Shown: positions 3 through 1,367 of the stretch, one piece after another | Position numbering within the stretch: position 1 is the stretch's first letter | Layout: every line of letters begins with the position of its first letter | Origin: a virus | Lineage: Duplodnaviria > Heunggongvirae > Uroviricota > Caudoviricetes | Reading direction: 5' to 3' (one strand) | IMG/VR virus record: IMGVR_UViG_2687453424_000001 | Length of the DNA stretch: 64,000 nucleotides | Notes under the pieces: generated by a model | Database searches by the model: none | What the model was told of the DNA's origin: nothing | The model's input: the letters and a program-made list of their open reading frames with translations, nothing else | Translations under genes and position numbers: made by a program

Positions 3-1367
3 ATGATCGAGCGTATGAAGGCTGAACTGCCTGATTACAACTTCTCTGGAGATGGTAAGGACTGGCTGATATCAACGGCGCGTGGTCAGGCAAATCCACT
101 CATGGAGACCCTGCGAGGTTATGGACTAATGGGGTGCACAGCAAAAAACAAATTCATCCCTCGTGTGTTTTTTTCCGCAAATAAATCAACGCGTATAGGC
201 ATGCTGTGTGGTCTGCTTGAAACGGATGGGTATGTCGAGAAGGATGGAACGCTTGTTTTTTCCTCAGCAAGTGAAGAACTGCGCAATGGGGTTGTTCAAC
301 TGGTTAACTCACTCGGCGGGTCATGCCGGACGCGAGTTAAAACTGGCGTGACATACACATACAAGGACGATAAGCGGCATGGGATGGATTCATACGAGGC
401 AAGAATCAGACTGACAAGAGAAATCAGGGAGGCCATCCGTTCACCACGACTCAATGGCAGATTAACTGCGCATCGATTCGAGGGCTGTGGGGTATTCGTC
501 AGGAATGTTGAAAAAATCGGCAATGCAGAATGCTTGTGTATTATGGTCGATCACCCTCGCCACCTGTATGTAACCAGGGGATATGTGGCGACGCATAACA
601 CCGAGGTTGTCGGGCATATGGCACTTGAGGCAATGCGTCAGGGTGTGAAGACGTGCATCGCGTCACTTGAGCTGAAGCCTGGTATTCTCCTTAAGCGCCT
701 TACCCGTCAGGCGACGTGCTGCAAGATGCCGCCAGTGCTGGAAATTGACTCTGCATTTAAATTTTATGACGAAAGACTTTGGGTGTTTGGCCTGACCGGA
801 ACGGCGAAAGCCGACAGGCTGATCGAAATATTCGACTACGCTCGCCGCCGATACGGTATCCAGTTATTCATCATCGACAGCCTGATGAAATGTGGCATAG
901 GCGACGATGACTATAACGGGCAGAAGGCGTTTGTTGACTCGATTTGCGACTTCAAAAACAAAACAAACTCCCACGTCATTCTCGTTACTCACTCGCGAAA
1001 AGGAGACAGCGAAGAAAAACCAACCGGGAAAATGGACGTAAAAGGCTCTGGAGCGATAACAGACCTGACAGACAACCTTTTCATCATCTGGCGTAACAAG
1101 GCTCGCGAGAGAGCGTTACAGAGAGTTCAGAGTGGTGAAAAGATGTCAGAGAAGGACGAACAGCTACTGGCATCTCCGGCATCTGTTTTGATGCTTGAAA
1201 AACAACGTAACGGCGAAGGTTGGGAAGGTGGTGTCCCGTTGTTCCTTGACGAGCAATCGCACCAGTTCCTGCAACTTGAATCAGGATCGCCATATAGCTA
1301 CATCGCCAATATGCCGAAATCGGAATATGACGAGGCGTGGCGACAGGAAAACGTGACGGAGTATTAA
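3..1367 (+). CDS. DnaB-like replicative helicase, 5'-truncated at window edge; residues encoded by 3..599 look like the C-terminal part of an intein with LAGLIDADG homing endonuclease, extein resumes at 600
   Basis: ORF open from window start. LAGLIDADG-like motifs (IGMLCGLLETDGYV, LRNGVVQLVNSLGG), intein block F/G-like CLCIMVDHPRHLYVTRGYVATHN followed by Thr. Downstream helicase motifs: FIIDSL (Walker B-like), VILVTHSRK (H3), KGSGAITDLTDNLFIIWRN (H4). Confidence 0.6.
   Translation: MIERMKAELPDYNFSGDGKDWLISTARGQANPLMETLRGYGLMGCTAKNKFIPRVFFSANKSTRIGMLCGLLETDGYVEKDGTLVFSSASEELRNGVVQLVNSLGGSCRTRVKTGVTYTYKDDKRHGMDSYEARIRLTREIREAIRSPRLNGRLTAHRFEGCGVFVRNVEKIGNAECLCIMVDHPRHLYVTRGYVATHNTEVVGHMALEAMRQGVKTCIASLELKPGILLKRLTRQATCCKMPPVLEIDSAFKFYDERLWVFGLTGTAKADRLIEIFDYARRRYGIQLFIIDSLMKCGIGDDDYNGQKAFVDSICDFKNKTNSHVILVTHSRKGDSEEKPTGKMDVKGSGAITDLTDNLFIIWRNKARERALQRVQSGEKMSEKDEQLLASPASVLMLEKQRNGEGWEGGVPLFLDEQSHQFLQLESGSPYSYIANMPKSEYDEAWRQENVTEY

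Follow-up and report, generated by a model that had tools for sequence, protein, structure and literature searches.

Class 3 inteins are set apart by the absence of an N-terminal nucleophile, by a Trp-Cys-Thr (WCT) triplet and by Ser or Thr (rarely Cys) at position +1, and they usually interrupt the P-loop of a helicase (Tori et al. 2010). Two types of them are among the closest known systems for the element described here. The mycobacterial DnaB inteins with solved structures, M. chimaera DnaB1 (MchDnaB1; 6RIX/6RIY) and M. smegmatis DnaBi1 (Msm DnaBi1; 6BS8), are mini-inteins of 139-146 amino acids (aa) that have lost their endonuclease, whereas the mycobacteriophage inteins MP-Be DnaB and MP-Catera gp206 are phage-borne, full-length and equipped with a LAGLIDADG domain. 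The subject of this study lies in a 64,000-nucleotide (nt) stretch of viral DNA, in the following called the window (IMG/VR record IMGVR_UViG_2687453424_000001). Its positions 1-599 very probably represent the 3' part of a 342-codon class 3 intein with a double-motif LAGLIDADG endonuclease, located in the P-loop of the primase-helicase P of a phage carrying Shiga toxin 2a (Stx2a).

The intein as such is already known and belongs to a known intein class. It was reported in 2012 for an identical phage, when Smith et al. (BMC Genomics 13:311, PMC3430580) described the P protein of phi24B (968 aa; TOPRIM primase and GP4d helicase) as carrying an intein with a HintN domain that starts at residue 372. 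This start agrees with our result, whereas the end given there (702) is 11 residues short of residue 713, which is set by a natural allele without the intein. The 2012 account (PMC3430580) makes no assignment of class, endonuclease or P-loop junction, and our literature search found no paper that assigns a class to this intein, notes its endonuclease or tests its splicing. The present analysis adds the exact junctions, the class 3 assignment with a map of catalytic residues, the gp4-like nature of the host protein, a census of alleles in which the intein is polymorphic and mosaic among prophages of enterohaemorrhagic E. coli, and a paralogue at the same P-loop site. In InBase the intein is presumably the entry 'EP-Min27 Primase'; a literature search for this name found nothing.

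The open reading frame (ORF) at positions 3..1367 of the plus strand encodes 454 aa and forms the C-terminal part of a 968-aa protein, whose whole gene comprises 2907 nt in identical phages. This protein is 100% identical to P of the Stx2a phages phi24B, F403 and F451. Positions 1-3000 of the window show 100% identity with Stx2a_F403, Stx2a_F451, vB_EcoP_24B (phi24B) and phiXuzhou21 and 99.7% identity with Min27, and they are also identical to prophages of O157:H7 and O111 genomes. In the phage records the gene is annotated as 'toprim domain-containing protein; primase & helicase domain', as 'P' or as 'DNA primase/helicase'. The features of this region are as follows.

1 to 599, plus strand: C-terminal 199 residues (144-342 of 342) of the probable intein, in the frame that begins at nt 3; placed by the 1026-bp insertion relative to LC645440 and by phmmer matches in the PDB to the class 3 inteins 6RIX and 6BS8.
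150 to 152, plus strand: endonuclease-domain residue Lys193, which probably corresponds to Lys301 of PI-SceI; invariant in an alignment of three inteins, with an ambiguous gap placement (HMMER pairs Lys191).
192 to 236, plus strand: second LAGLIDADG motif RIGMLCGLLETDGYV (MLCGLLETD218GYV), with Asp218 corresponding to the catalytic Asp326 of PI-SceI; LAGLIDADG_3 above the gathering score, PI-SceI alignment, D218-G219 invariant.
528 to 572, plus strand: intein block F ECLCIMVDHPRHLYV, with Cys322 (nt 537-539) as the Cys of block-F position 4 and predicted initiating nucleophile; opposite Cys124 of MchDnaB1 and Cys118 of Msm DnaBi1, invariant in the three-intein alignment.
579 to 599, plus strand: intein block G, GYVATHN, with Thr340 (the T of WCT), His341 and the terminal Asn342; from the translation and the alignments.
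600 to 602, plus strand: Thr +1 (ACC), predicted nucleophile of the C-extein and Walker A Thr of GxxGxGK-T; from the intein-less allele reading GVNGHGK-TEVVG and the DNA alignment.
600 to 1367, plus strand: C-extein, 255 aa of SF4 (T7 gp4-like) helicase domain after Walker A (600-1364) and the stop codon; phmmer to T7 gp4 (5IKN, 6N7I, 1Q57) and Twinkle, Pfam AAA_25 and DnaB_C.

Both junctions of the intein are fixed by a natural empty allele. Phage Stx2_EH2086 (LC645440) encodes a 626-aa orthologue which reads ...LVNGVNGHGK-TEVVGHMALE..., whereas the allele of the window reads ...GVNGHGK/ACPLNEP...(342 aa)...GYVATHN/TEVVGH... (slashes mark junctions). On the DNA level the alignment with LC645440 yields a single exact in-frame block of 1026 bp (342 codons) between GGA AAG and ACC GAG. 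The insert corresponds to residues 372-713 of P and splits the Walker A motif (GxxGxGK/T) between Lys and Thr; its removal restores a contiguous GVNGHGK-TEVVG with Walker A intact, as is expected for an intein. Several related phages, among them Stx2_EH2086, match the window only from nt 597 on. The N-terminal junction is found 427 nt 5' of the window (position 4574 of NC_049924) in identical phage records. These results bear out much of the original prediction, which was made from the sequence of the window without database searches. It had proposed an intein within a helicase, and the natural allele lacks exactly these residues, in addition to the match to a class 3 intein at E=4.8e-10, so that chance can be dismissed by a wide margin. 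It had let the first 199 residues end in ...HLYVTRGYVATHN in front of a Thr, as found at nt 591-602 (ACG CAT AAC / ACC), had seen the insertion at or near the P-loop, which proves to be cut within GVNGHGK/T, and had correctly expected the N-terminal junction outside the window.

The assignment to class 3 is based on the residues at the junctions and in the splicing blocks. Position 1 of the intein, fixed by the empty allele, is Ala, and no Cys, Ser or Thr is present there; splicing can thus not start by an N-S acyl shift at residue 1. A WCT triplet is formed by Trp67 (block B position 12), Cys322 (block F position 4) and Thr340 (block G position 5), and Thr +1 is at the same time the Walker A Thr of a gp4-like helicase, in agreement with the +1 residue and the P-loop location typical for the class. 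By the sequence criteria of Tori et al. (2010) the insert qualifies as a class 3 intein. Among solved structures, the splicing domain has its best matches in the M. chimaera DnaB1 intein (6RIX/6RIY, E=4.8e-10) and in M. smegmatis DnaBi1 (6BS8, E=3.9e-7). The alignment begins at residue 4 of the insert, and blocks F and G align with the ...HLY...THN of the solved inteins, followed by Thr at +1. His65, Trp67, Cys322 and Thr340 pair with His65, Trp67, Cys124 and Thr143 of MchDnaB1 and with His65, Trp67, Cys118 and Thr137 of Msm DnaBi1, and His341 and Asn342 also align with published catalytic residues of both. The block A/B region at the N-terminus of the insert is matched by Pfam Hom_end_hint with E=9e-6, below the gathering score. 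In an alignment of three inteins that are mutually 33-51% identical (the present one, a paralogue from Stx phages with 51% and the Koguma helicase intein with 33% identity), A1, H65, W67, C322, T340, H341 and N342 are invariant, as are the endonuclease residues G126-D127-G128, K193 and D218-G219. An upstream block A beginning with Cys or Ser had been anticipated. The block itself was recovered, both by Hom_end_hint and by the solved DnaB inteins, but it begins with Ala1; since this is a hallmark of class 3, the intein call is not refuted by it.

The LAGLIDADG endonuclease is supported by profile searches, as had been suggested for a check. Pfam LAGLIDADG_3 matches residues 65-120 of the window ORF with 30.3 bits against a gathering score of 22.5 (E=5e-7), and the complete sequence reaches 35.1 bits against the same 22.5-bit cut-off; a Hom_end match on the window ORF is slightly under its cut-off. 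Two LAGLIDADG helices are recognized, each ending in an acidic residue: LAWVIGSLLGD127G and MLCGLLETD218G. The original prediction had placed LAGLIDADG-like motifs in the window, and the homing endonuclease domain stands, but only the second of its two motifs is located there, the first (LAWVIGSLLGDGSL) being upstream. The central domain matches the solved structures of PI-SceI and PI-PkoII with E between 1e-6 and 1e-4, and Asp127 and Asp218 align with the catalytic Asp218 and Asp326 of PI-SceI. The endonuclease domain of PI-SceI, the yeast VMA1 intein, is homologous (E ~5e-5), with both LAGLIDADG motifs and the catalytic Asp residues aligned. Its splicing domain is only distantly related, and PI-SceI is a class 1 intein (Cys1, Cys+1) residing in a V-ATPase. 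A free-standing endonuclease gene inserted into P was also considered and rejected, as the insert continues the reading frame of P without a separate start or stop codon and is bounded by HINT blocks on either side.

The nature of the host protein requires a correction. A DnaB-like or P22 gp12-type helicase had been assumed, but the spliced sequence contains a Toprim primase (Pfam Toprim_2, E=3e-12), and the Pfam DnaB_C match remains with 23.9 bits under the 27-bit cut-off; no DnaB N-terminal domain was found in it, and AAA_25 is slightly over its cut-off with 28 bits. With phmmer, residues 192-539 match T7 gp4 (5IKN, 6N7I, 1Q57) with E between 1e-23 and 1e-21 (best 2.6e-23), and human Twinkle is matched with E=6.4e-14. 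VNGVNGHGKT aligns with the gp4 P-loop TSGSGMGKS. The helicase motifs H2 to H4 that had been noticed downstream have their equivalents in gp4, namely H2 LFIIDSL (window 864-884), H3 ILVTHSR (978-998) and H4 VKGSGAITDLTDN (1038-1076); they belong to an alignment of the C-terminal 255 aa with the helicase domain of T7 gp4. To judge from these matches, the host is a Toprim primase fused to an SF4 helicase of the T7 gp4/Twinkle type, which shares the SF4 fold family with DnaB and is no DnaB orthologue.

With these elements a route for splicing and homing can be proposed. In the 968-aa precursor the ATP-binding loop is split, and the helicase would be inactive until splicing has occurred. Splicing would likely follow the class 3 mechanism of the relatives: the thiol of block-F Cys322 would attack the Lys(-1)-Ala1 peptide bond and form a branched thioester at block F, the N-extein would be handed to the hydroxyl of Thr+1, Asn342 would cyclise and release the intein, and an O-N shift would produce a normal GK-T bond, so that a 626-aa primase-helicase equal to the natural intein-less allele results. 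The freed intein, with its LAGLIDADG domain and Asp127 and Asp218, may then cut the intein-less P-loop coding sequence in mixed infections or polylysogens, and repair from the intein-bearing copy would convert the cut alleles. Such homing would explain a distribution of the intein that is patchy and yet mosaic.

The 968-aa ORF is intact in phi24B and Min27, both inducible or infectious, as well as in a Klebsiella phage isolated from sewage, which implies that this essential replication protein is matured. Protein splicing is inferred from the fact that phages with an intact gene are viable. The Klebsiella phage, phiKp_30, is a P22-like Lederbergvirus that encodes the same 968-aa intein-containing primase-helicase (L003:782-3688) with a 97.5% identical intein. 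It belongs to a different genus, and the primase-helicase interrupted by the intein is its only such gene.

In comparison with the mycobacterial DnaB inteins (6RIX/6RIY, 6BS8), the present intein shares Ala1, His65, Trp67, the block-F Cys and a C-terminal THN, as well as the location behind the P-loop Lys (N-extein ...GK) of a replicative SF4 helicase and Ser or Thr at +1. It differs from M. chimaera DnaB1 and M. smegmatis DnaBi1 by its complete LAGLIDADG domain and by its gp4-like host, where these reside in DnaB, and by Ala62 instead of Asp62 at block B position 7 and Val48 instead of Msm Cys48. With the mycobacteriophage inteins it has in common that it is phage-borne and full-length, with LAGLIDADG and WCT and without an N-terminal nucleophile, and is followed by Thr or Ser. 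Like it, those occupy P-loops, of helicases or terminases. They belong to actinobacterial phages, whereas the host here is an enterobacterial lambdoid phage, and the identity is only about 30%. Furthermore, class 3 splicing was shown biochemically for the mycobacteriophage inteins, whereas here it is deduced from sequence. The Koguma helicase intein can be aligned from end to end with 31-33% identity and has the same GK/A...THN/S architecture. For mycobacteriophage Bethlehem, the RefSeq record contains a different intein of class 1 type in gp51, and the DnaB-like gp61 is annotated as intein-less. A tblastn search against phages revealed distant relatives (23-36% identity) in 580 phage records, most of them in helicases and large terminases and those mostly in mycobacteriophages. 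This fits published work, in which class 3 inteins are seen as a lineage associated with phages and the P-loop as a hot-spot for inteins.

A 65-bp DNA match led to a closer relative, a paralogous intein in a 797-aa DnaB-type helicase of about 50 other Stx2a phage records, which have this helicase in an alternative replication module. An example outside the window is BBL33594 of Stx2a phage 981509 (LC487996, L004:2368-4761), where the insert comprises 339 aa and reads ...ARPGMGK/AMALSEG...NHLW...ECLCIMV...VTHN/TELA.... The two inteins are 50% identical over the full length (E=2e-121), whereas their exteins are not detectably similar (BLASTP E=0.17). Ala1, NHLW, ECLCIMV, THN/T, the double LAGLIDADG and the GK/T insertion point are shared; unlike the intein of the window, the paralogue is flanked by AAA/ACG. 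It is present in full length in 24 of the 5426 complete E. coli genomes examined. In RefSeq, the locus of the paralogue bears several DnaB features, for N- and C-terminal domains, that overlap one another.

In the same set of genomes the intein of P itself occurs in 79, each time full-length and at least 99% identical, and an empty site in 209. Within IMG/VR, 121 empty and 13 intein-bearing alleles were collected (14 with the F451 reference added). The intein-bearing alleles lie on at least five flank haplotypes, with polymorphisms common to different empty alleles, and between -39 and +98 around the insertion none of them deviates from the others. Identical inteins are found with flanks that show 17-18 differences in 1400 nt, and the mean pairwise diversity of the intein (0.33%) is to be compared with 1.09% for the flanks. 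This pattern is consistent with a spread across pre-existing alleles with short co-conversion tracts, i.e. with homing. Relative to the reference, the phiKp_30 intein has 26 nt differences, of which only 7 aa changes result; this points to purifying selection. Half of these differences (13 of 26) fall within the first 41 nt of the intein; this clustering at the 5' junction, together with AAA at position -1 of this allele, suggests a recombination patch at the 5' junction. The recovered distribution comprises E. coli, Shigella and one Klebsiella phage, and an internal 29-mer of the intein had no match in the GTDB species representatives.

Decayed copies exist as well. Among the IMG/VR contigs, one carries a 1-nt deletion in a run of seven T (intein nt ~594, L125) and one in a run of six T (~682, L130). 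A third copy (L136) is truncated at intein nt 715 by unrelated DNA beginning TGAAGTGGTCAACAAAAACTGGCC, possibly the end of an insertion sequence. The truncated form corresponds to the Shigella flexneri prophage inteins that Tori et al. (2010) mention as 'partial ... Primase'. A homologue search with the intein alone returned five matches, a 203-aa Shigella flexneri intein fragment being found in this search. In the copy of the window both T-runs are intact, the longer one at positions 167-173.

Several points weigh against the interpretation as an actively splicing and homing class 3 intein. General recombination among mosaic lambdoid phages could give similar mosaic flanks without any endonuclease activity. 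The junction itself is also conspicuous: all 121 empty alleles read AAA/ACG, whereas the intein-bearing alleles read AAG/.../ACC. At these two synonymous sites (window 597-602; upstream 4571-4576 of NC_049924), Lys AAG at -1 and Thr ACC at +1 are completely linked to the intein, apart from AAA at -1 in phiKp_30. Targeted scans of IMG/VR and of the GTDB representative genomes detected no empty site with AAG or ACC. Owing to these differences at -1 and +3, the empty sites of today may be poorly cut, and homing has perhaps ended; the junction markers were either brought along by the intein, or what survives of the empty sites is a resistant variant. For the splicing reaction, block B has Ala62 where Msm DnaBi1 has Asp62, and a WCT triplet grafted onto a class 1 intein gave no splicing, which means that WCT alone is no proof of the mechanism. 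Finally, the function of the phi24B P intein was called undetermined by Smith et al. 2012 (PMC3430580), and our literature search found no splicing, branched-intermediate or cleavage experiment on it.

It is possible, though less likely than not, that the intein splices while its endonuclease is no longer active or has no cleavable target left, and that the patchiness arose from homologous recombination of lambdoid phages together with vertical descent in clonal lineages of enterohaemorrhagic E. coli (EHEC). The uniform AAA/ACG junction of the empty sites and the failure to find AAG or ACC among them would fit this scenario, as would the highly mosaic replication modules of lambdoid phages, the many O157:H7 relatives among the 79 intein-bearing genomes, and the frameshifted and truncated copies. 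On the other hand, both LAGLIDADG motifs and the Lys are intact and are conserved in the 50%-identical paralogue as well as in the 33%-identical mycobacteriophage relative. An intein with one third of the diversity of its flanks, found unchanged on flanks with 17-18 differences and within a -39 to +98 core that resembles a co-conversion tract, also speaks for homing, and the ratio of nt to aa differences in phiKp_30 suggests that selection has maintained the protein.

Far less probable are the alternatives that concern splicing. A different splicing chemistry appears very unlikely, either as a class 1 intein with its true start at Cys2 and, after splicing, one surplus Ala in the P-loop, or as a class 2 (KlbA-like) intein with a direct attack of the +1 residue on the N-terminal junction. 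The Cys at position 2 (ACPLNEP...) would suit the former, and Ala1 occurs in class 2 KlbA inteins too. But the empty allele puts the Ala inside the insert, and a start at Cys2 would yield GHGKA-T and break the Walker A GK[ST]. Position 2 is moreover not conserved, with Met in the DnaB-type paralogue of Stx phages, Glu in the Koguma relative and Leu opposite it in the solved DnaB inteins. KlbA inteins have Cys+1 and no WCT, whereas W67, C322, T340 and Thr+1 are combined here as they co-vary in class 3. It is still harder to believe that the intein is a non-functional, decaying or domesticated domain which leaves P permanently interrupted, as a pseudogene in defective prophages. Some copies are indeed dead, namely the two with 1-nt deletions in T-runs and the one truncated at nt 715; the InBase 'Primase' inteins of Shigella prophages are partial (Tori et al. 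2010), and a class 3 pseudogene has been reported with the Arth_1007 intein of Arthrobacter. The allele of the window, in contrast, has all catalytic residues and no lesion, and it is identical in the plaque-forming or inducible phages phi24B and Min27. The 97.5% identical copy of the sewage Klebsiella phage sits in its only primase-helicase gene, and each of the 79 copies in E. coli has the full length and is annotated as an intact coding sequence.

Apart from a role as selfish passenger, such an intein might act as a redox-sensitive conditional gate on the replication of Stx2 phages, an idea drawn by analogy that we regard as improbable. Both paralogues from Stx phages have kept a Cys320-x-Cys322 motif, and Cys61 does not vary within the family in the three-intein alignment. 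If splicing depends on the internal thiol of Cys322, oxidants such as H2O2, which induce Stx prophages, could reversibly block the maturation of the primase-helicase. Redox-conditional splicing has been shown for the related M. smegmatis DnaBi1, whose redox partner Cys48 is replaced by Val48 here. If such a gate existed, phage genome amplification and Stx2 yield would be modulated, and it could explain why class 3 inteins are kept at the same P-loop site of two unrelated replication helicases of Stx phages. Natural pairs of intein-bearing and intein-less phages, such as phi24B and Stx2_EH2086, offer a tractable enterobacterial system for class 3 splicing, for homing between lambdoid phages and for a possible effect of intein-gated replication on Shiga-toxin output.

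The window as a whole seems to be composed of two kinds of DNA. The phage sequence ends at about nt 42,830, which in Stx2a records of the LC645409 type is about 390 bp before the end of the record, at an annotated insertion duplication. For positions 42831-64000, megablast and blastn gave no match in the 5426 E. coli genomes or in 50,697 phage records. This part has a CpG observed/expected ratio of 0.05-0.34, compared with about 1.0 in the phage part, and contains N runs and no long ORFs. Its repeat-like text is reminiscent of avian interspersed repeats. The scaffold gives the impression of vertebrate-like DNA to which a contaminating phage or E. coli sequence has been joined. The N runs are either masking or assembly gaps:

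7139-7842, 13199-13811, 47246-50063, 50677-52412, 54654-59075 and 63817-64000: six N runs, 10,477 bases in total.

By collinearity with Xuzhou21, the run at 7139-7842 lies inside the stx2A coding region (7047-8006), and the run at 13199-13811 covers the Rz/bor region. Directly upstream of stx2A, at 6705-6956, three tRNA genes form the known tRNA cluster of Stx phages. The first of them is called tRNA-Met (CAT) by ARAGORN, whereas its name in the records is ileZ, a tRNA-Ile with a presumed lysidine modification; the second and third are Arg-TCG and Arg-TCT. At the right end of the phage part, an ORF of about 2,800 aa at 34622-43003 (again by collinearity with Xuzhou21) corresponds to an 'LPD38 domain-containing protein', and the longest stop-free stretch of the window, with 2,811 aa, is located in this ORF.

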